Below are positions 24,747-39,400 of a stretch of 64,000 nucleotides of DNA, in pieces. Within the stretch, counting starts at the first letter, position 1, and the number at the start of each line of letters is the position of its first letter. The stretch is from a virus (lineage: Duplodnaviria; Heunggongvirae; Uroviricota; Caudoviricetes), in the IMG/VR virus record IMGVR_UViG_2675903313_000009. One strand, written 5' to 3'. Both the position numbers and the translations under genes were made by a program. Below the pieces are notes generated by a model, which did no database searches, was not told the DNA's origin, and saw nothing but the letters and a program-made list of their open reading frames with translations.

Positions 24747-25217
24747 GTGAAAGCTGATTTGTCAAAAATCCCTTCTATTTCAGGAAATAACGGTTATTCA
24801 CTTCGTTGTGAGGAAGTAAAGATAAACGGTGAGTCGGCATATTGCAGCTACTCCGTTTGCCAGCACACCATTCTTGCCTTCAAAGAAAACCGTCTTCCTC
24901 GAACTTCATTCCAGTCGTGCGCAACCGCTATCAAAGCAGGCAAATGCAAGGCGTTAAAAATGATGGTTGAAGAGATTCGTAAAGGAGAATCTCTGTATTT
25001 CGAAGATATGACCGCGCTCATTAAGGAGGTTGAAGAACGGAATAAACAAGCCAGAACTTTAAAACGAAAACGTGACAGTGTAACGATTAATAGCATGGTT
25101 AAGAAGAGCACCACATCACAAACAGCGATCACTGACGTGTATGCGGCGTTGCTTGAAGAAACAACAAAAGAAACACATGAGCAAATCGATCAACATATGG
25201 AGGTAAAACAACAATGA
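24747..25217 (+). CDS. Hypothetical protein (156 aa)
   Basis: Track ORF; its stop overlaps the ligase start. Confidence 0.45.
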   Translation: MKADLSKIPSISGNNGYSLRCEEVKINGESAYCSYSVCQHTILAFKENRLPRTSFQSCATAIKAGKCKALKMMVEEIRKGESLYFEDMTALIKEVEERNKQARTLKRKRDSVTINSMVKKSTTSQTAITDVYAALLEETTKETHEQIDQHMEVKQQ

Positions 25218-26536
25218 AAAAGTTGATCGCACTTAAGCATAAGCTGGACGAAATGAAAGCTATGGGAACCAATGCAAAAAAAGAGGCATTGGCCAACATG
25301 GATGACTTCGAGCAAAGCATGGTTTCATTGATGCTCAACCCTTTCATCCGTTTTGGGGTAAAGAAATACAAAGTGGCAGAGCCGCTTAGTGAGTCCATCC
25401 CAAGTGACGAAAAAGCCATTGATGTACTGAATAAGCTGGCCTCTCGCGAGCTAACGGGGAACGCAGCAATAGCTGCTGTTGAGTCTATCGTGGCGTCAAT
25501 GTGCGCCGATGGGCAGGACGTGTTCCGTCGTTTCCTCTTAAAAGACCCGAAAGCGGGTGTTGGGATTAGCCTATGCAACAAGGTTTTTGAAAATCCCATT
25601 CCGAAATTCGAGGTGCAGCTGGCGTCACCGTATAAAGAAAAAGGCGACAAATACCCCTTCAAGCCAAATCCTAAAGCAAAATGGCCGATGATTGGCAGCC
25701 TTAAGCTCGATGGTTTGCGAGTAATTTGCGAGGTTATTGTTGACGAAGAAGAGGTTAACTTCCTTTCTCGTACTGGTAATCCAATCACGTCTCTCGATCA
25801 CCTAAAGCCAGCCATGCTCGAATTAGGCAAACTTTCAGGCCACAAACACATCTTCTTCGATGGTGAAGGCACAGCCGGTTCATTTAACCAGTCCGTATCT
25901 GCATTGCGCAAAAAGAACGTGCAGGCAATTGGCGCTATTTATCATATTTTCGACTTCTTCCTACCGGAATGGCGAGCACAGGCTAAATCCAAAGAGTATG
26001 CAAAGACAGGTATGAAGCTGAAAGAGCGCCTGGCTATGCTGGTGGCGTTGTTCAAAAACGATCGCAGTGAAGGCTACACACAAGACATTCACCTGCATCC
26101 GTTCTATATCATCCATAGCCACGAAGACTTCATCGAACGCTTCATGAAACGCCTGGACGATAACGAAGAAGGGGAGATGGGCAAAGATCCGAACTCTGTT
26201 TACGAGTTTAAACGTACCCGCAGCTGGTGGAAGTTAAAAGACGAAGATTCAGAAGATGGTGAAATTATCGACTTTGAGCCGGGCGATCCGGACTCTGGTT
26301 TTGCCAACACGCTTGGAAAAATTGTTATTCGCCTTGAAAACGGTGTGATTGTTCGTGCGAGCGGCATTAAGCATAAATATCTGGACGAGATCTGGAACAA
26401 CAAAGAGAAGTACCGTGGTCGTATTGTCGAGGTTCATTGTCACGAGAAAACGCCGGATGGCAGCTTACGCCACCCACGACTGAAATGGCCGCGTTGCTTA
26501 CGCGATACAGAAGATCGAATCGGAGATAAAGAATGA
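25214..26536 (+). CDS. ATP-dependent DNA ligase
   Basis: Nucleotidyltransferase motif I KLDGLR (in IGSLKLDGLRVICEV); 440 aa. Confidence 0.85.
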   Translation: MKKLIALKHKLDEMKAMGTNAKKEALANMDDFEQSMVSLMLNPFIRFGVKKYKVAEPLSESIPSDEKAIDVLNKLASRELTGNAAIAAVESIVASMCADGQDVFRRFLLKDPKAGVGISLCNKVFENPIPKFEVQLASPYKEKGDKYPFKPNPKAKWPMIGSLKLDGLRVICEVIVDEEEVNFLSRTGNPITSLDHLKPAMLELGKLSGHKHIFFDGEGTAGSFNQSVSALRKKNVQAIGAIYHIFDFFLPEWRAQAKSKEYAKTGMKLKERLAMLVALFKNDRSEGYTQDIHLHPFYIIHSHEDFIERFMKRLDDNEEGEMGKDPNSVYEFKRTRSWWKLKDEDSEDGEIIDFEPGDPDSGFANTLGKIVIRLENGVIVRASGIKHKYLDEIWNNKEKYRGRIVEVHCHEKTPDGSLRHPRLKWPRCLRDTEDRIGDKE

Positions 26537-26712
26537 TGCTCGGTTGGATGATTGCATTTTTAGCAGTTGGTTTTTTCATAGGTATTGTGGTGATGTCCAG
26601 TTGCATCAATGACTACATTAAAAGCGGTGTTATAGAAAGACGCGGTCGTATTTATCGCATTGTAGAAATAACCAACACCGTGAAGGAGATTAAGGATGAT
26701 CGTATTAAGTAA
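26533..26712 (+). CDS. Small membrane protein (59 aa)
   Basis: Below track length cutoff; ATG overlaps the ligase stop (ATGA); TM helix then GRIYRIVEIT motif. Confidence 0.35.
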   Translation: MMLGWMIAFLAVGFFIGIVVMSSCINDYIKSGVIERRGRIYRIVEITNTVKEIKDDRIK

Positions 26713-26911
26713 ACGGGAGAAGGAAACGCTTCATGAAATCAGTAAGTGGCCGGAGTTCCCTGAGTACTGGAAGCCTAAAACGCGAGCTAAGTTAGAGCGT
26801 TTAGGGTTGGTTGCAAACGTTTCTGAAACGTGGTGTTCGGCCAACTACCAGTTAACTGATAAAGGGAAAGTATTGCTACAGCAATTAGTAGAATCAGGAG
26901 TGTTAAAATGA
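26696..26911 (+). CDS. Small hypothetical protein (71 aa)
   Basis: Track ORF with AAGGAG RBS. Confidence 0.4.
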   Translation: MIVLSKREKETLHEISKWPEFPEYWKPKTRAKLERLGLVANVSETWCSANYQLTDKGKVLLQQLVESGVLK

Positions 26912-27060
26912 TTCCATACATCTCATTAGCTTTTATGGGTGGCTTCCTTATCGGCTTCGGCATCTGTCGTGATTTAATTAAGCAGGAACTTAAAACCAAA
27001 ACACTGTGCATCGGAAAGCGTGTGTATCGGGTAGTTCATGAAACAAAGGTGAAAAAATGA
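26908..27060 (+). CDS. Small membrane protein (50 aa), paralog of 26533-26712
   Basis: ATGA overlap with previous gene; TM helix then GKRVYRVVHET motif. Confidence 0.35.
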   Translation: MIPYISLAFMGGFLIGFGICRDLIKQELKTKTLCIGKRVYRVVHETKVKK

Positions 27061-27347
27061 TCAATTTGACTTCTTGGAACTGGTGGTTGGCCACCTATTT
27101 CTTAGCGGCCGGAGTCGCATTCGCCTTTTACGTAGGTCAGTTAGTCGTAAAACTGTTGCTGATTAAATTTGCTAGTCATAAACGTATCGATGATGGTCTG
27201 TGGCGTCTTGGCACCCTGGTGGAAATTCGCTACGGGCAACTTAAGGAGAACGAAACCATTACTATCCAAGCGAAACGATTCACTGCCACCATTACAAGAA
27301 CACCTAGTCGTAGAGTGGCCTTGATCAAAAAAGTCACAACCGAATAA
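27057..27347 (+). CDS. Small membrane protein (96 aa)
   Basis: Track ORF; ATGA overlap with previous gene; N-terminal TM helix. Confidence 0.45.
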   Translation: MINLTSWNWWLATYFLAAGVAFAFYVGQLVVKLLLIKFASHKRIDDGLWRLGTLVEIRYGQLKENETITIQAKRFTATITRTPSRRVALIKKVTTE

Positions 27348-27737
27348 AAACATATTGATAAGTATTTACTTACTTATCTTTTGTGTATAAGATGACTTTG
27401 TTTTCGTTGAGACGCGACTGTTTGAACTTAAATACAAGTGCAAACGAAGAAGTCTATCTGGCAGTAGCCTAATAAGCCAAACACCAGCGAGGTCAGTTTC
27501 CAGCCTCGTTACCGAAATGGGACACACTGAGCGAGTGTGATTGCAGAACGCAGGAGGGAACATTCATGTTCCCTCCGATGAAGTAACAGAATGGGCGGTT
27601 GGTATATTTTCAACTCCATATGACTCCCGGATTCTTAGCCACTGACCGCCCATCCTGTTACGTCATTTTGTTCAATTATGTCGTTTATACTGGGTTAAAA
27701 AGCGGCGACGTAGCCCGGCTGGTATGGTTAGCCAGCA

Positions 27738-27859
27738 CACAACGTTGAGGCCATTACATTTTTATCAATTCTAAGGTTCTATTCACAGAGATACCGGCGA
27801 ACGTTGATATGTAACATGTTGGGCAAACATTCAATCGGAGTAGTGGCCTCAACGTTGTG
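27738..27859. repeat. Long inverted repeat (16-bp arms CACAACGTTGAGGCCA / TGGCCTCAACGTTGTG, about 90-nt loop)
   Basis: Perfect complementarity read directly; first of three related stems around the tRNA genes. Confidence 0.6.
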
Positions 27860-28125
27860 AAGACGGGATTGTTGTGTAGGTTTAACCACTGTTGCCATTG
27901 GTGCCTGTTTTCACAACAAATGATTCCATACATCACATAGTATAAATTACAAAGTAGGTGCTGTCCTCAGAAACATCATCTACTTAAAGATTTTGCCTTC
28001 TACTATTGAGCGAAGTCGAAAGCGTCTGGCACTAACGAAAAGTGCAAGTAGCGGTGCGTTTCCTGGCAGAAACTAAACCGTCGCGATTGGCACTGTTGAG
28101 TAATAAATACTGGCAGTGCTGAATT

Positions 28126-28200
28126 GATGGTGTAGCTCAGCGGTAGAGCAGTTGGCTGTTAACCAACTGGTCGGTGGTTCGAATCCACCCACCATCGCCA
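28126..28200 (+). tRNA. tRNA-Asn (anticodon GTT)
   Basis: Hand-folded cloverleaf: acceptor GATGGTG/CACCATC, anticodon loop CTGTTAA, T-loop TTCGAAT, encoded CCA. Confidence 0.8.
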
Positions 28201-28205
28201 ATTTA

Positions 28206-28292
28206 GGGGAGTTAGTCCGTAGAGGTAGCGGTGTAGACTGTAAATCTACTGTCATGGCGACTCGGGTGGTTCGACTCCATCACTCCCCACCA
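28206..28292 (+). tRNA. tRNA-Tyr (anticodon GTA), long variable arm
   Basis: Acceptor GGGGAGT/ACTCCCC, anticodon stem-loop GTAGA-CTGTAAA-TCTAC, T-loop TTCGACT, CCA end; D-arm not fully canonical in my fold. Confidence 0.65.
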
Positions 28293-28296
28293 AATT

Positions 28297-28372
28297 GCCG
28301 GTTTAGCTCAGTTGGTAGAGCAGTCGCTTTGTAAGCGAATGGCCAGCGGTTCAAGTCCGTTAACCGGCACCA
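28297..28372 (+). tRNA. tRNA-Thr (anticodon TGT)
   Basis: Acceptor GCCGGTT/AACCGGC, D-arm AGCTCAGTTGGTAGAGC, anticodon loop TTTGTAA, T-loop TTCAAGT, CCA end. Confidence 0.8.
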
Positions 28373-28373
28373 A

Positions 28374-28462
28374 CACAACAGGTAAGAGCATTGGGCGAAT
28401 CGGCGATACTGACCCACAAGGCCGTAAATCGATAGAGTCAGACCAGTGCTCTTACCGTTGTG
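28374..28462. repeat. Long inverted repeat (about 20-bp arms CACAACAGGTAAGAGCATTGG / CCAGTGCTCTTACCGTTGTG)
   Basis: Between tRNA-Thr and tRNA-Ser; one bulge and one mismatch. Confidence 0.6.
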
Positions 28463-28562
28463 ATGAATGCACAGGCTGATGTGCCGCAACTACAGTAGTG
28501 CGCGCTTTGCGGGGCTTGCTACAACCCTGTGTCGGAGTTCAGTACCGACCATCACAATAGCT

Positions 28563-28649
28563 GGAGAGTAGGGAGCATGGTGCTCAAGCGGTCTTGAAAA
28601 CCGTTCCATTGTGCAAACGATGATGGTTCGATTCCATTACTCTCCGCCA
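28563..28649 (+). tRNA. tRNA-Ser (anticodon TGA), long variable arm
   Basis: Acceptor GGAGAGT/ACTCTCC, anticodon stem-loop GCGGT-CTTGAAA-ACCGT, T-loop TTCGATT, CCA end. Confidence 0.7.
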
Positions 28650-28650
28650 G

Positions 28651-28729
28651 ACACAGCGTTGAGCGGTTTGGCCTTTTAATCAACTCGATTAAGACTCCGC
28701 TAACATAAACCAGACCGCTCAACGCTGTG
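28651..28729. repeat. Long inverted repeat (20-bp arms CACAGCGTTGAGCGGTTTGG / CCAGACCGCTCAACGCTGTG)
   Basis: Directly after tRNA-Ser; one mismatch; arm sequence related to the 27738 repeat. Confidence 0.6.
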
Positions 28730-28806
28730 ATAGATAATTACGGCAGACGTTCTTAACCATAGCTTGCTAACATCTTAGCAACACTTTTTTCAGCGCAAAA
28801 TTCAAA

Positions 28807-28826
28807 GGGGCTTCGGCCCCTTTTTT
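28807..28826. terminator. Bidirectional rho-independent terminator
   Basis: GGGGC-TTCG-GCCCC hairpin flanked by an A-run upstream and T-run downstream; lies between the tRNA cluster and the convergent gene 28842-30104. Confidence 0.7.
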
Positions 28827-28841
28827 GTTGAACAGTGCAAT

Positions 28842-30104
28842 TTACTTTACATAGTCGCCCAGTTTTAATATTTCGCGCTTATATTCTTTAACCATGCTAC
28901 TGGATTCAGTATAAATTCGATTTAAAAGATTATCGCTATCTTTATTCTCATTTATCTTAATGAGTGATAATTTAAATTCATAGTCATCAAATGCCACAAT
29001 CAAATGGTGGCCTGGGATTATATCTTCGTCACTCTTGAAGTATATATCTTCAAGTATGTAATCTAGTTGATTAGATTTTCTTTTCTCGATGTAATCTTCA
29101 GCCATAGCTATTACATCATTCCTGTCATTTAACCTGTTTTTTTCGGAAGGCACATCTTCGTAATGTTGCACGATTGAACAACCAATAAGGCGTGGGATGT
29201 AAACGTCAAAATGAGTAACTCTATCATTCGCGGTTTTAAGTTGTTCCTCAAAGTAGTTTCTTACATGTAAAGGCAACTTCTCAAAGTAATCATTAATTAT
29301 AGGAGAACAAGGAGTTTTATAATTCATAAGAACCGACGGTACGAGCTGTGGGCGTCGAAACATCCAGTCCCTTTTAACGTCCGATGGAACATAATAACTT
29401 TTAATGATATTATCAAAATAATTTATCATTCGAGATTTGAATATTTTATTGAATCTAAGGTTTATGAATGTATCCAGATAAGGCATATTTGAATAAGCAT
29501 CATCAAAAAATATTTCATCATTGAAAAAATCATATTTATTCAATAAACAACACAGTTTTTCCGAATTAATATGTTCACAATAATCGATTTTTAATCCAAA
29601 GATAGCAATGATCAACTTCATCTGAGGTGGGATTTTAAAAATTAATTGTGATACATACGCTCTTTTTTCCTTGAGACATTCCCCATCAATATAAAATGAA
29701 CTATCCACATACTCAAATATATTAATAATATGCTTCACATACTGTATTACCTCATGCTGTTTTACCAATGGGTAATAGAGTCTATGTAACTCATCGCTGT
29801 TTAAATTAATTTTGTGTTTATCGATAATTTGTTTTGCAAGAAGACATAACGCATCATGTTGATTTAATAAGGAATCAAACCATTGTTTAAATGCACTCTT
29901 TCGCATTTCGAACAATGATTCAGTTGTTAATTGAAGGGCTGAAAAAGCTGCTTTTGCACTTTTTCTCGCTTCGTAGGCATTCCATGCTGTTGCTATAAAA
30001 GCAAATGCTGTAGCCAATGTTCCAACAGTTTGACCATTTAAAACAACCCAATCCCAAAAAATAACGGTGAGCAGTAGTATAATAATGAAAATTAAAAAAG
30101 GCAT
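28842..30104 (-). CDS. Hypothetical membrane-anchored protein (420 aa), strongly AT-rich
   Basis: Only long ORF in a markedly AT-rich segment; N-terminal TM helix (MPFLIFIIILLLTVIFWDWVV...); Ile/Lys/Asn/Tyr/Phe-rich; no motif recognised. Confidence 0.6.
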   Translation of the reverse strand: MPFLIFIIILLLTVIFWDWVVLNGQTVGTLATAFAFIATAWNAYEARKSAKAAFSALQLTTESLFEMRKSAFKQWFDSLLNQHDALCLLAKQIIDKHKINLNSDELHRLYYPLVKQHEVIQYVKHIINIFEYVDSSFYIDGECLKEKRAYVSQLIFKIPPQMKLIIAIFGLKIDYCEHINSEKLCCLLNKYDFFNDEIFFDDAYSNMPYLDTFINLRFNKIFKSRMINYFDNIIKSYYVPSDVKRDWMFRRPQLVPSVLMNYKTPCSPIINDYFEKLPLHVRNYFEEQLKTANDRVTHFDVYIPRLIGCSIVQHYEDVPSEKNRLNDRNDVIAMAEDYIEKRKSNQLDYILEDIYFKSDEDIIPGHHLIVAFDDYEFKLSLIKINENKDSDNLLNRIYTESSSMVKEYKREILKLGDYVK

Positions 30105-30278
30105 GTATGTATTTCACTCTACTAACTATAAATTATTAGGCTAATGTTAACCAAACAATGCCTTAATTAATAGATTGATCGAGGCTTTAATAGCTTTATA
30201 ATGCAGACTGCAAAGATAAGTATGCACATACCTATCTTCTTTGTAAGTAAAGTTGCATATCAATTCTATGAGGTAACA

Positions 30279-30524
30279 ATGACGATCACTATCTACGGAC
30301 GAGATAACTGCTCATACTGCAAACGTGCGGTCGAGCTGGCGAAGCAACTAAAGGGACATGGCTACGGTGATTATGAGTACATCGACATCACCACTGCCGG
30401 TATCAACAAGGAAAAACTAAGTGAAATTGTTGGTAAACCGGTAGAGACTATCCCCCAGGTGCTGATCGATGGCCAGCCGATTGGCGGATACACAGAACTG
30501 GCTGCATACGTCAGCACCCTCTGA
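30279..30524 (+). CDS. Glutaredoxin (Grx1-like)
   Basis: Internal Met of track ORF 30201-30524; CSYC redox motif and GKPVETIPQVLIDGQPIGGYTELAAYV closely resemble E. coli glutaredoxin 1 from memory. Confidence 0.8.
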   Translation: MTITIYGRDNCSYCKRAVELAKQLKGHGYGDYEYIDITTAGINKEKLSEIVGKPVETIPQVLIDGQPIGGYTELAAYVSTL

Positions 30525-30530
30525 TTTTAA

Positions 30531-30554
30531 CGGCTCACAGGAGCCGTTTTTATT
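30531..30554 (+). terminator. Rho-independent terminator
   Basis: CGGCTC-ACAG-GAGCCG hairpin followed by TTTTTATT. Confidence 0.65.
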
Positions 30555-30734
30555 CCCACCAAACTCACTCCCATTTCCCTTAAAATTCAAAAAACAACGT
30601 CAAAATGATTCCATACCTACTATGTATGGAATCATTACTGAAAATGAGTTACTTTTACTCTTGATCCTATAAGAATCTATGCCTAATATACTGTTTACTT
30701 ATACAGTGAATCGGCGTAACTCGGTGATTGTCAT

Positions 30735-31838
30735 ATGAAAAATAGCTTTGACAGAGCACGCGCTGCGGAGAACACCTCAAAAGAGGCGATTGAGTATCTC
30801 GAAAGAGCATCTCAAATGCAGGCCGTTATGATCTCGCAGGTCAGCAATGACATGAGATTCTCGGACGCATTCATGTTATTCACTCGCTTATCTCTGCTGA
30901 TAACAAGACGTCGGCCAGAGATCGCTGTTCATTGTATTTTGATACATGTTTTGCCGCACATTGCCGATGTAAAAGTAAGTGACATTAATAGGTTCATGGT
31001 GAACCAACTGGTCAACCCACTAATACTGGATGGCAAAATTGTTATGGGCCGCCGCGTTTTCTCTCTGATGAAGCAGTTCCTTAGCTGGTGCGCCTTCCAG
31101 GGGATGATAGACGTGTCACCGTTAAACGATATGTCACTAAACAAAGTTGCCGGTGGCGCAAAGCCCACACCTCGCGAGCGGAAGCTGACCGACGCAGAGG
31201 TATGGGTGTTCTGGAATATATGGGACTACTTCAATGTGTGCGCTGGTACAAAATGGGCGGCCAGGCTGTGTCTTGTATCCGCAAGACGACCTGACGAAGT
31301 ACTGCGGGCTAAAAAAAGTGAGTTCAATCTTAAGCGTGGGGTTTGGAATCAAGGCAAGAGGAACAAATCTGCCCGTGAGCATTCGCTGCCTTTAAGCACA
31401 TTAATGCGCACATGTATTGAAGAGTTGTTCGAATACGGTAAAGGCAGCCAGTGGCTCGTGCCTTCGAATAAAAAAATCGGGAAAGACCTTCCTATGTCTA
31501 AAGTGGCAATAGCCCAGGCATTACGTCGTATCCTGGAACGACCAGAACTGATGGAGCTTGAGCCATTTACACCCCGAGACTTGCGCCGTACTGCGCGTAG
31601 TTACTTCCCAGCATTAGGCATAAGCCAGGAGGTATCACGCAAAATCATGAACCACAGTCTTGAGGGGATAGATCGAGTCTACGACCGGCACGATTATATG
31701 GACGAGATGCGAGACGCCTTAGAAAGTTTCTCGACGTACATCGCATCAATCGTAGAGCAACCGGATTTAGACGAAATTGACCACAAATTCAAGGGAGATC
31801 GTCTATCAACAGAGCTTATTCGTGTAAATTTTTCATAG
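30735..31838 (+). CDS. Tyrosine recombinase / integrase-like protein
   Basis: C-terminal half has catalytic-type blocks (..ARRPDEVL.., ..TPRDLRRTARSY.., ..NHSLEGIDRVYDRHDY..); the usual His of the H-x-x-R box appears as Arg; start uncertain. Confidence 0.6.
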   Translation: MKNSFDRARAAENTSKEAIEYLERASQMQAVMISQVSNDMRFSDAFMLFTRLSLLITRRRPEIAVHCILIHVLPHIADVKVSDINRFMVNQLVNPLILDGKIVMGRRVFSLMKQFLSWCAFQGMIDVSPLNDMSLNKVAGGAKPTPRERKLTDAEVWVFWNIWDYFNVCAGTKWAARLCLVSARRPDEVLRAKKSEFNLKRGVWNQGKRNKSAREHSLPLSTLMRTCIEELFEYGKGSQWLVPSNKKIGKDLPMSKVAIAQALRRILERPELMELEPFTPRDLRRTARSYFPALGISQEVSRKIMNHSLEGIDRVYDRHDYMDEMRDALESFSTYIASIVEQPDLDEIDHKFKGDRLSTELIRVNFS

Positions 31839-36426: not shown

Positions 36427-39400
36427 CTTCTCACTTGGGGAGTCGGCTCTAAAAGCAGAAAACGCGGTGAAGATTGCCAGAGAAGCTGGCTACACCGCTG
36501 TAATTTCAGCAGATAGCATGAATATTGCGAGCGTTATTCCACTACAACGTGCCGCTGGTGACGACATGGCGGTTATTTGTGGTGTGAAACTAAACATTGT
36601 TGATGATCCCACATACGAGCACCGGGCTAAACTTGCTAAAGAATCTATGAGATGTATGGAATCATTAGAGCGGGGACGTAACTACTCGTTTACCGCTCTA
36701 ATTAAAAATGAGCAAGGATATCGCGACATCTGCGAACTAATGACGGTGGCCAACACACGAGAACAGTTCTACTTTGTACCGCGTCTCTCGCTCGAAAAGT
36801 TGGTTTCTACATATGCCAAAGGCAACATCATCCTGCTCACTTCCGACATCGGTAGCGTGTTCCAACGCAACGATTTTGCAAAAATCATAAGCTCACTGAT
36901 TACAGCGGGCGGGAAAGACAACTTCTATAGTGTGGTTTATCCGCACCCTACCCCATTCTACGACCAGATTAACGTCCGAGCGATGAAAGTCGCCAGCGCA
37001 CTGAAAATAGAGCCAGTAGCGTTCTATCCCGCTTATTACGAATCGATCGACGATGCAGACATTAAAGACATTGCGCACATGGTTACGAACAACATAAAAA
37101 TCGACCAGCCGCATCGTCTGCGTATCCCCCACCAGCGAGATAACGCCATCAATGGTCGTCGCCATCTCCTTGAGGCGCTTAAAGCCTTCTCCGTTCGCAT
37201 GGATGTGCCGGTAACAGCTGCAATGGCCTCAACAACGCAGGACTCCATTATCGATGCCTGCACATGGCGCTGGCATGAATTGCCACCAGCACTGCCCAAG
37301 ATGGCAGACGACGAACCTGCAACGCTGATGAAACTGGCTGTTGCAGGGCTGCGTAAACGTCTTACCACAAAAGAGTTTGGATACACACCACCTGCTTCTG
37401 AGAACAGGGTTTATGTTGAGCGGCTAAAGTACGAAATGGACACGCTGACTCGCCTGGGATTCTGTGGTTACTTCCTGATGGTACGCGATCTGATGAATCA
37501 CAGCCGTGAAACTGGCATTCCTGTCGGGCCTGGTCGTGGTTCCTCTGCCGGTTCTCTGGTGGCGTGGTGCATAGGCATAACCAACGTCGACCCAATCCGT
37601 CACGGTCTTCTGTTTGAGCGTTTCATCAACCCTGAGCGTCTCGACTTGCCGGATGCGGACTTGGACTTCAGCCAGGCACGTCGCCATGAGGTGATCGAGT
37701 ATCTGAATGAACGCTACGGCGAAGATTACGTTGCAGGCATTCCGAACTTCACCTACCTGGGCGCAGCCTCTGCACTACGTGACACCGCTCGTATTTATGG
37801 TGTGGAGTCCGCAGATATGGCGGTATCAAAAGAACTGAAGAACGTCGAGGATGATAGCCTTCCATTGGAAGAGCTGCGCGAACAACTGGCAAGTCTCGAC
37901 AAATACGCAACAAAATATCCTGATGCATTCAATGCAGCCTGCAAGTTACAAAGCCTTATGCGTGGCTTTGGTAGACATGCGGCAGGGATGATCGTAGCAG
38001 GTGTTCCTCTAACAGAACGTACACCGGTTGAGCGCCGTGGTGACGCGCGTTGTATCGCATTTGACAAGCGTTACTGCGAGGCTATGGGCCTAATTAAGCT
38101 GGACGTACTTGGTCTGGCAACTCTCGATTTGCTCGATAGTGCAAAACGCTACATAAAAGAGAACACAGGTGAAGATATCAATCTTGATGCCATTTCTCTT
38201 GAAGATCGCAAGGTGCTGGATGGTTTTGCTGCTGGGTACACTCAAGGTGTTTTCCAGCTTGAATCAGGCCCAATGCGCAAGCTGCTTAAAGATTTAGGTG
38301 GTGGAATTGAGCCAATGAGCTTTAAAACGGTTGTTGCTACGACTGCGCTCTTCCGGCCGGGGCCAATTCAGTCAGGCATGTTGGATGACTATGTTTCTGT
38401 AGCCAAAGGCTTTATGACGCCGGAATCATTACACCCCGTTCTTGATGAACTTACCGCAGAAACAAATGGCGTGATTCTCTATCAGGAACAGACGATGAAC
38501 GCGACTCGATTGCTTGCTGGCTTCACAATGGCTGAAGCTGACGGCGTTCGTAAAGCGATCGGTAAAAAAGACATGGAAAAAATGAAGAGCATGGGCGAGA
38601 AGTTCATCGTTCAGGCTCAAGCTGGCTGGATAGACGTTGAGCTGGAAGATGGCACTACACAGCGCATTCACCGTGCGGAACATTTTAAATGCGAAGACGG
38701 AACTCTGAAAACTGTCGAAGAGGCACTTGAGTACGGCGCAAAACTACCTATAAACGCAGTACGCGTTACAGCGTCACATCCAGGGCTATCAGAGATGAAA
38801 GCGAAGGAGATCTGGACCGCATTCGAAAAGAATGGTGCCTACCAGTTCAACAAATCACACTCTGTTGCTTACTCCTTAATCAGTTATCAATCTATGTGGT
38901 TGAAAACTCATTATCCCGCGGAGTTCTTCGCTGCTGCTCTCACTATTCTTGGCGAAGATAAACACCAGGGGCTGGTTAAAGATGCGCTGACCTATGGTAT
39001 TCGCGTATTGCCACCAGACGTTAACGTGTCATCTAACCGAATCGAGATCCGCACGCTTGAAGATGGCAGCCAGGTGCTGTATGCGCCCTTCTCTGCTGTG
39101 AAAGGGTGTTCTGAGAATGGCTGCCAAGCCATCATGAGAGCGCGAGAAAAAGTTGGCGGCAAATTCGAGTCACTGGCGCAATTCGAAGAAGCTGTCGAGA
39201 AACGTGCCTGTAATAGTCGAGTGCGCGAATCGCTGCAAAAAGTAGGGGCGTTTGCATCCATCGAGCCAGGCAGTCTGCCAGCAACTGATCCAGAGCGCCT
39301 ACGCGACCAGGCTGAATTGATGGGAAACCTTGTCATAGACGCAGTTAAAGCCTCACGTCCGTTTGAGATGAACCCCAAACGTTCGGCTGAAATTAACGTA

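Follow-up and report, generated by a model that had tools for sequence, protein, structure and literature searches.

The phi29 protein p16.7 is reportedly a membrane-anchored organiser of DNA replication in a Bacillus phage, with a coiled coil and a DNA-binding domain of helical fold. T4 Imm and Sp, P22 SieA and HK97 gp15 are small inner-membrane phage exclusion proteins that are often accessory and variable, and the type I toxins Hok, TisB and ZorO are single-transmembrane (TM) peptides of 60 amino acids (aa) or fewer. Here, we analysed a chain of four small genes, o1 to o4, that follows the ligase gene in a 64,000-nt stretch of DNA from a member of the Caudoviricetes (IMG/VR record IMGVR_UViG_2675903313_000009; hereafter, the window). 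Based on our analysis, o1 and o3 are very probably paralogues of one small membrane peptide family, and the constant unit of the locus is at least one such peptide together with the membrane protein o4. The best explanation of the locus as a whole, to which we would give an even chance, is a replicative-phase inner-membrane complex facing the cytoplasm.

Judged by its DNA relatives, the window is an E. coli phage-plasmid of the SSU5/pHCM2 type: phage Cyrano is ~98% identical to it, Salmonella phage SSU5 78% and Klebsiella phage pJN2-26 75%, and a more sensitive search found related DNA in 791 PLSDB plasmids (Klebsiella, Escherichia, Enterobacter, Salmonella pHCM2, Yersinia pMT1 and others). 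In clinical Enterobacterales, few extrachromosomal elements are more common than the SSU5-type phage-plasmids; ~680 PLSDB plasmids carry o3, with S. Typhi pHCM2 and Y. pestis pMT1 among the carriers. Nearly all small genes of these elements are unannotated or called 'hypothetical'.

Paralogy of o1 and o3

The original prediction described a coupled chain holding two single-TM paralogues that have a basic motif in common, and this structural reading was right. The motif is real: it reads GRIYRIVEIT in o1 (59 aa; 26533..26712, + strand), whose tail carries RGRIYRIVEIT, and GKRVYRVVHET in o3 (50 aa; 26908..27060, + strand), whose basic tail carries IGKRVYRVVHET. Both are bitopic membrane peptides. 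The similarity of the motifs was upheld by alignment, that is, by BLASTP, profile-profile comparison, shuffles and reciprocal best hits. BLASTP aligned o1 with o3 at E 3e-5, and their Smith-Waterman score was 53, a value attained by none of 5000 global shuffles and by 11 of 5000 that kept the TM and tail segments apart.

For the profile comparisons, the o1 and o3 homologues gathered were all from SSU5-like elements. The two family profiles aligned with a probability of 81% in hhalign (E 1.2e-5) over 49 gapless columns, and they were reciprocal best non-self matches among the 1123 six-frame open reading frames (ORFs) of the window, with E values of 0.012 and 7e-4 and the next match at ~0.5. As a negative control, the peptide profile was compared with the TM protein o4, which gave a probability of 0.3%; therefore, TM composition does not explain the o1/o3 signal. 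The same hhalign value, together with Smith-Waterman shuffles at p ~0.05-0.7, led us to reject o4 as a third paralogue.

The merged o1/o3 alignment, which has no gaps, contains the invariant residues M, R39, Y41 and R42 and the near-invariant residues G13, G17 and T47, with G13 and G17 forming a GxxxG motif in the peptide helix. Members of the family are 50-63 aa long, with an N-terminal TM helix carrying the conserved GxxxG followed by a basic tail. In this tail, the core G-[KR]-R-[IV]-Y-[RK]-[IV]-V holds the only invariant residues other than the start (R, Y and R). When the merged profile was searched against 1.84 billion representative proteins, just 23 short proteins were matched, intermediates included; the family is therefore narrow. 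One intermediate, MMIPYI...RRRVYRVVEIT, joins an o3-type N-terminus with an o1-type C-terminus. With the o1-clade profile, the E values were 7e-8 to 3e-6 for o3-like proteins and 3e-10 for a single-copy form; with the o3-clade profile, an o1-like protein was matched at E 5e-6. Such intermediates make the link between o1 and o3 unambiguous.

It is extremely improbable that the likeness is a convergence of unrelated TM peptides through composition and a short chance motif, as might be argued from the shortness of the proteins, their pairwise identity of 26-31%, a modest tails-only shuffle test (300 of 20000, or 1.5%, reached the score) and the separation of the two families in PHROGs, since the alignment is full-length and colinear, the invariant residues coincide, the profile hits are reciprocal, intermediates are linked at E 1e-6 to 1e-10, single-copy and tandem forms occupy the same locus and the unrelated o4 scores so low. 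The peptide family had not been recognised as a single one: PHROGs splits it in two (4381 and 6302), with neither co-occurrence nor topology recorded.

The peptide and o4 as a constant unit

The protein o4 (96 aa; 27057..27347, + strand) is a third N-terminally anchored membrane protein of the chain, overlooked in the original prediction, as were the conserved unit of peptide and o4 and the optional, probably winged-helix nature of o2. Its constancy became apparent from the contigs of the intermediates, in which the peptide family lies directly after the ligase gene in SSU5-like elements of 104-112 kb. Locus L012 has tandem paralogues without o2 (ligase-o1-o3-o4); L013 has ligase-o1-o2-o3-o4, with an o3 that starts at TTG and is uncalled in the record; L015 and L018 have the ligase, one peptide and o4; L017 has a single peptide and o4, with the ligase missing; and L019 shows an o1-o2-o4 arrangement. 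The downstream proteins of 80-96 aa in these distant relatives are o4 homologues (transitive BLASTP, E 9e-17 to 1e-7), and o2 is absent in L012, L015 and L018. Because distant relatives carry either one peptide copy or two in tandem, we conclude that the o1/o3 pair arose by duplication.

Considering the 74 assessable IMG/VR loci containing o4, the full order ligase-o1-o2-o3-o4 is found in 58, exactly o1 is missing in 13 (lig-o2-o3-o4), and o3 is directly upstream of o4 in 73. Among PLSDB plasmids, 532 carry o1 and 682 carry o3. The constant unit is, thus, at least one peptide plus o4, which quite likely work together as a functional unit, and o2 is an optional insertion, located between the peptide copies in one lineage only.

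The loss of o1 has a defined boundary. A 16-nt direct repeat, GGAGAT[A/T]AAG[A/G]ATGAT, flanks this gene in two copies that are identical at 14 of 16 positions. The left copy, GGAGATAAAGAATGAT (26522..26537, + strand), comprises the Shine-Dalgarno site and start of o1, and the right copy, GGAGATTAAGGATGAT (26685..26700, + strand), comprises those of o2. The o1-less variants, present in many E. coli plasmids, in locus L004 and in the 13 IMG/VR loci, are joined exactly at this repeat, which explains their form, and in them the ligase is coupled directly to o2. These joins suggest that o1 arose or is lost via recombination at duplicated translation-initiation regions.

A different deletion is widespread in Klebsiella (L009 1803-2050; L011 2290-2535). 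Ligase codons 76-440 and o1 are lost in it along with the greater part of o2, and ligase codons 1-75 are fused in frame to the C-terminus of o2 at a shared GAGCTGCTGGAG (ELLE) stretch; therefore, o3-o4 stay coupled to an upstream ORF, and those plasmids have no phage ligase. As a separate observation, the C-terminal residues KDDRIK of o1 echo the C-terminus of the ligase, EDRIGDKE.

The overlapping gene chain and its coding status

The chain lies in the replication module, where it is preceded by genes for a helicase, a primase, two unknown proteins and an ATP-dependent DNA ligase (440 aa; 25214..26536, + strand; Pfam DNA_ligase_A_M E 1.2e-12; phrog_114 E 1.8e-125). The four head-to-tail genes that had been proposed at 26533, 26696, 26908 and 27057 were confirmed, all on the + strand; the second of them, o2 (71 aa; 26696..26911), encodes a soluble protein. 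The view of the chain as coupled stood for these four genes; its start had been placed one gene too late. The first link is a 156-aa ORF (24747..25217, + strand; phrog_5055, function unknown; CYRAN_35 in Cyrano), the stop of which overlaps the ligase start at 25214. ATGA overlaps occur at the ligase/o1 (26533-26536, in which the ligase stop is TGA), o2/o3 and o3/o4 junctions, and o1 and o2 overlap by 17 nt. The Shine-Dalgarno sites GGAG, AAGGAG, AGGAG and AAGGTG are located 6-8 nt before the start codons of o1 to o4, respectively. Translational coupling as such is ordinary for a phage. In Cyrano, approximately one in five same-strand neighbouring gene pairs overlap, as judged from the annotated coordinates, and the longest consecutive run of overlaps in that genome, five junctions, is at this chain.

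From the ligase start to the o4 stop, the + strand shows no promoter-like site and, as its only hairpin, a weak one; therefore, the chain should be read from one transcript.

Comparisons with the SSU5, pMT1 and Klebsiella homologues gave ratios of nonsynonymous to synonymous substitution rates (dN/dS) of 0.11-0.15 for o1, ~0.08 for o2, 0.17-0.22 for o3 and ~0.10-0.12 for o4, with ~0.02 for the ligase, all at dS values of ~0.8 or above, which are saturated or nearly so. These low values in the stated frames indicate purifying selection on the protein sequences of o1-o4. The four genes are annotated with the same order and overlaps in SSU5, pJN2-26, pMT1, pHCM2 and one Klebsiella plasmid; the Cyrano record leaves o1 unannotated. 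We therefore regard o1-o4 as almost certainly genuine protein-coding genes at the distal end of a replication-gene operon comprising the 156-aa ORF, the ligase and o1-o4.

Each of the four proteins matches its own PHROG over its full length, all of 'unknown function': o1 phrog_4381 (E 3.6e-39), o2 phrog_4054 (E 1.7e-45), o3 phrog_6302 (E 1.4e-36) and o4 phrog_4507 (E 5.4e-57). Searches of Pfam, NCBIfam, PADLOC and PDB sequences returned nothing significant for o1, o3 and o4, and no defence-system protein model in PADLOC matched any of these three. The PADLOC matches of o2 (E 0.0015-0.03) were only to the winged helix-turn-helix (wHTH) parts of Csa3/CARF models. Our literature searches found no functional study of the o1-o4 genes. 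Many RefSeq/PLSDB records call o4 a 'C-type natriuretic protein'. Pfam, NCBIfam and PDB gave no support for this name, which looks like a propagated annotation artefact.

Protein anatomy and predicted topology

The proteins o1, o3 and o4 each have one strongly hydrophobic N-terminal window of 19 residues (Kyte-Doolittle 1.8-2.9). The TM helix spans approximately residues 3-25 in o1 and 2-20 in o3, both with GxxxG, and approximately residues 9-36 in o4. On its N-terminal side are 0-7 essentially uncharged residues in the peptides and 17 uncharged residues in o4, and the C-terminal charges are +9/-6 in o1, +10/-3 in o3 and +13/-6 in o4. The positive-inside rule is an established basis for reading topology from flanking charge. 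Applied to these uncharged N-terminal flanks and basic C-terminal parts, it predicts an N-out/C-in orientation, which is likely to hold for all three proteins; the conserved tails would therefore be cytoplasmic, with almost nothing in the periplasm.

An AlphaFold2 (AF2) model of o4, obtained from a shallow alignment with a predicted local distance difference test score (pLDDT) of 64, has a helix at residues 6-60 and strands at 67-71 and 76-80, which form a C-terminal beta-hairpin. With this low-confidence model, Foldseek found nothing (best E 4), and PDB sequence searches, like this fold search, gave no hit of any kind.

The model of o2 (pLDDT 70) has helices at 6-17, 27-36 and 55-67 and strands at 39-41 and 51-53, in a helix-helix-helix-wing-helix order. 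The alignment behind it was also shallow, as a joint o2 and o4 query returned mainly o4 relatives, with o2 sequences present only as fusion or frameshift products. The top 50 Foldseek matches of o2 in the PDB were almost all winged helices (MarR, RovA, DtxR and AspA), though weak (E 0.1-0.7, TM-score ~0.5), and weak sequence matches were obtained with Pfam HTH_45 (E 0.18) and the C-terminal wHTH of Csa3. On the basis of this model, o2 is probably a winged-helix protein. The model resembles MarR/PadR-like proteins in its H-H-H-wing-H order, and the Y-Q-L-T-x-K-G wing signature is present, but o2 has just 71 aa and neither a ligand domain nor a dimerisation domain.

Expression in lysogens

In the RNA-seq data of the LF82/Cyrano lysogen, the ligase gene and o2-o4 (CYRAN_36-39) have 5-8 normalised counts, like the structural genes (PMC9928086). 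CYRAN_37-39 are at 5.0-7.6, compared with 96 for the repressor and 7084 for the moron CYRAN_43, and the list of lysogeny-expressed morons in that study omits these genes (PMC9928086). The ligase gene and o2-o4 are, thus, at background in lysogens, which together with the operon structure assigns the module to the replicative or lytic programme.

A dispersed 20-nt element

An element of ~20 nt, AATGATTCCATACATC[T/A]CAT(T)AG, occurs at four places in the window. The first copy, AAATGATTCCATACATCTCATTAG (26906..26929, + strand), contains the start codon of o3 and its codons 2-5 (I-P-Y-I). The second (27918-27940, + strand) is noncoding and lies near the 3' end of the transfer-messenger RNA (tmRNA)-like gene described below, ~200 nt upstream of a tRNA-Asn gene. 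The third (36645-36667, - strand) is antisense inside the PolIII-alpha gene. At the fourth place (30604-30636), the element forms a perfect, lox-like palindrome, AATGATTCCATAC-CTACTAT-GTATGGAATCATT, with 13-bp arms and a 7-bp spacer, ~100 nt upstream of a tyrosine integrase gene (30735-31838). No further copy was found elsewhere in the window or in Cyrano 1-100 kb; the number of occurrences expected by chance is 0. The element is conserved in all relatives, with a copy at the start of the peptide and another farther downstream, the latter persisting even where the coding copy has diverged.

Inverted 13-bp arms around a 7-bp spacer are the layout of a tyrosine-recombinase core site, and the arrangement of the element suggests such a core site with half-sites. 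Given its positions at the o3 start, the 3' end of the tmRNA-like gene and the integrase palindrome, this region could be subject to regulation or rearrangement by a site-specific DNA-binding protein. We also considered o2, whose stop codon adjoins one copy, as the binder of the element; this is unsupported, as the element persists in genomes that have no o2. The synonymous sites of o3 codons 2-5 are invariant in 43 distinct sequences; nevertheless, a few other codons are equally so, and this invariance is therefore only suggestive of a constraint at the DNA level.

Possible functions of the module

In the replicative-phase membrane complex that we favour, translational coupling would fix the proportions of o1, o3 and o4, which would be produced alongside the helicase, primase and ligase in the replicative or lytic phase and not in lysogeny. 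The peptides and o4 would pack through small-xxx-small motifs of their TM helices into a small inner-membrane complex; that they form a hetero-oligomer is a tentative proposal, a little short of an even chance. Such a complex would show its basic beta-hairpins to the cytoplasm, where it would hold or modulate a partner. The most likely partner would be the replicating phage DNA or the replisome, for which the complex would act as a membrane tether with a logic analogous to that of phi29 p16.7, although as a specific claim this analogy-based tether is unlikely. A host factor would be the alternative partner, which would make the module a host-takeover device; this target is about as likely as the tether, and host takeover in the replicative phase is possible and overlaps with the reading that we prefer. 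The joint proposal, that one or both peptides and o4 form a new membrane-anchored module that tethers or organises the genome or replisome via basic beta-hairpin tails, with its expression or gene content tied to the 20-nt element, is a long shot.

In p16.7, which is small, made early and encoded together with replication functions, an N-terminal TM anchor is followed by a C-terminal part in the cytoplasm. The architecture and operon context of the module fit an organiser of this kind, with its topology and timing being predicted. The two differ in that p16.7 has a helical domain and a beta-hairpin tail is predicted here, as well as in host and replication mode, and we claim no homology. Should the tails prove to bind DNA or the replisome, the membrane-anchored organisers of replication known from phi29 would have a Gram-negative counterpart in this module.

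Several points weigh against the proposed complex. The conservation of the o3 N-terminus may partly reflect the overlapping DNA element instead of protein function. By its distribution, the module is accessory and not essential: a Moellerella relative with a ligase 56% identical has none of the module genes, many E. coli plasmids lack o1, and some Klebsiella and IMG/VR copies of the module have decayed (L008 and L079). Additionally, the peptide and o4 persist in ligase deletions (L009 and L017), which makes a link to ligation itself weak. The LF82 data give no expression value for o1, which is unannotated in Cyrano, and our literature searches found no lytic-cycle transcriptome or proteome of any SSU5-like element. 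Finally, the topology is based on simple Kyte-Doolittle and positive-inside counting and not on a dedicated predictor, and the AF2 monomer models of o4 and o2 are of low confidence.

Exclusion had been among the suggestions of the original prediction; as superinfection exclusion, it would block the DNA entry of incoming phages at the inner membrane, from the prophage or early in infection, in the manner of T4 Imm or P22 SieA. The small size and membrane location of the proteins, their early or accessory-rich region, the Tad2-like, Acb2/Tad1 hairpin and Lar genes a few kb downstream in distant relatives, and the variable copy number and frequent o1 loss typical of accessory genes under conflict would all agree with it. 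However, o2-o4 are at background in the LF82/Cyrano lysogen, and in the predicted topology the segment outside the cytoplasm is uncharged and has just 0-7 residues in the peptides and at most 17 in o4, which is a misfit with exclusion proteins acting in the periplasm. Exclusion by a resident prophage is therefore disfavoured, and an early-lytic form of it may apply. The conserved part is, moreover, the predicted cytoplasmic tail, and no PADLOC or Pfam match was found. The likeness of the module to T4 Imm and Sp, P22 SieA and HK97 gp15 lies in small inner-membrane proteins of accessory and variable occurrence; the differences are the absence of homology in Pfam, PHROG and PADLOC and the silence of the SSU5-type genes in lysogeny. 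Overall, we regard exclusion as quite unlikely.

Equally unlikely is a role as membrane-active toxins, host shut-off factors or division inhibitors, like the type I toxins or SPO1 gp56, in which the peptides and o4 would depolarise or perturb the inner membrane, or disturb the divisome, during takeover. A length of 50-60 aa, a single TM helix with small-residue motifs and a basic tail recall small toxins, and silence in the lysogen is what a toxic product would need. Nevertheless, the genes belong to a long coupled operon and do not form a toxin/antisense-RNA locus of their own, our promoter scan showed no antisense promoter that is conserved, and the strongest constraint falls on the structured soluble tail, not on the helix. 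Compared with Hok, TisB and ZorO, the peptides are alike in size and in their single TM helix but have no dedicated promoter or antisense RNA, belong to a coupled operon and carry a conserved, structured basic tail. No promoter-like site was found on the - strand within 26500-27350. We also examined whether an antisense small RNA from the noncoding copy of the 20-nt element might repress the translation of o3, as in a type I toxin-antitoxin system, and rejected this idea. The - strand promoter-like site at 27967-27939, from which an RNA complementary to the o3 start could be made, lacks conservation in Cyrano and SSU5, no T-run terminator is seen after it, and the element is further found as a DNA palindrome and, inside the PolIII gene, in reverse orientation.

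The regulation of lysis timing by a holin, antiholin or holin accessory protein, also raised in the original prediction, is very improbable, since the N-terminal anchor and small C-terminal domain of o4 and its weak match to the holin PHROG phrog_2359 (E 0.02) are met by the facts that this match covers only the TM segment of o4, with no Pfam holin hit, that a complete holin/endolysin/Rz/Rz1 cassette lies elsewhere (CYRAN_22-25, ~9.4 kb upstream in the structural region), and that the genes are coupled to replication genes and have basic tails predicted to be cytoplasmic.

The proteins themselves are already in databases as hypothetical proteins or PHROGs of unknown function, and on present evidence they are small phage membrane proteins and not a new kind of system. 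The new results are the merging of two families into one, the history of their duplication, the pairing of peptide and o4 as a unit, the timing and the topology that we predict. An ORF list is thereby turned into a testable unit, in which two orphan PHROGs are one family with a constant membrane partner and a place in the replicative programme.

A putative tmRNA gene and the downstream region

Together with the candidate recombinase site family, the tmRNA-like gene is a neighbouring feature that is possibly more interesting than the peptide module. It is located directly after o4, at 27348-27940 (+ strand), and encodes a conserved structured RNA of ~480 nt with many compensatory base changes in several hairpins. 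Its tag frame, 27440-27475 (GCA AAC GAA GAA GTC TAT CTG GCA GTA GCC TAA TAA), encodes ANEEVYLAVA followed by two stops and has no conserved start codon. Across 86 related loci, the tag variants include ANEDTYLAVA, ANDNQYLAVA, ANEDAYLAVA, ANDTQYLAVA, ANSDVFLAAA and ANEDSYLAVA. The ssrA tmRNA tag of E. coli and other enterobacteria is ANDENYALAA, which the predicted tag strongly resembles.

At default ARAGORN and Rfam gathering thresholds, the gene was not called; with the ARAGORN thresholds set at 70-80%, a permuted tmRNA with exactly the ANEEVYLAVA tag was reported. No canonical tRNA-like domain was seen in the gene, and all records inspected leave it unannotated. The gene is, thus, a putative tmRNA gene and apparently an unreported one. 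An exhaustive plasmid and virus survey of 2014 found ssrA only in mycobacteriophages and none in plasmids or phages of the present type (PMC4131195). From outside its dataset, it additionally reported Bacillus phage G and DS6A, the latter with the tRNA-like domain (TLD) only (PMC4131195).

In distant relatives, genes for Tad2-like, Acb2/Tad1 hairpin, Lar and NinH proteins are found a few kb downstream of the module (L013 8594-9381; L015 6962-7636; L017/L018 8168-8689). With such anti-defence and restriction-alleviation genes nearby, the module has surroundings of an accessory or counter-defence character.

The stretch between the noncoding element copy and the integrase palindrome, 27941-30603, is variable. 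In the window, it holds four tRNA genes (Asn, Tyr, Thr and Ser) and a 420-aa ORF on the - strand (28842-30104); in Cyrano, three tRNA genes and other small genes; and in SSU5, one tRNA gene followed by a cobT-like gene. Y. pestis pMT1 lacks the noncoding element copy, and its caf1R/F1-capsule locus starts ~500 bp after o4. The tRNA gene of the window at 28562-28649 was called tRNA-Ser(tga) by ARAGORN, and its best Rfam match was tRNA-Sec at 47.3 bits, compared with a gathering threshold of 47 bits; the gene probably encodes an ordinary tRNA-Ser with a long arm.

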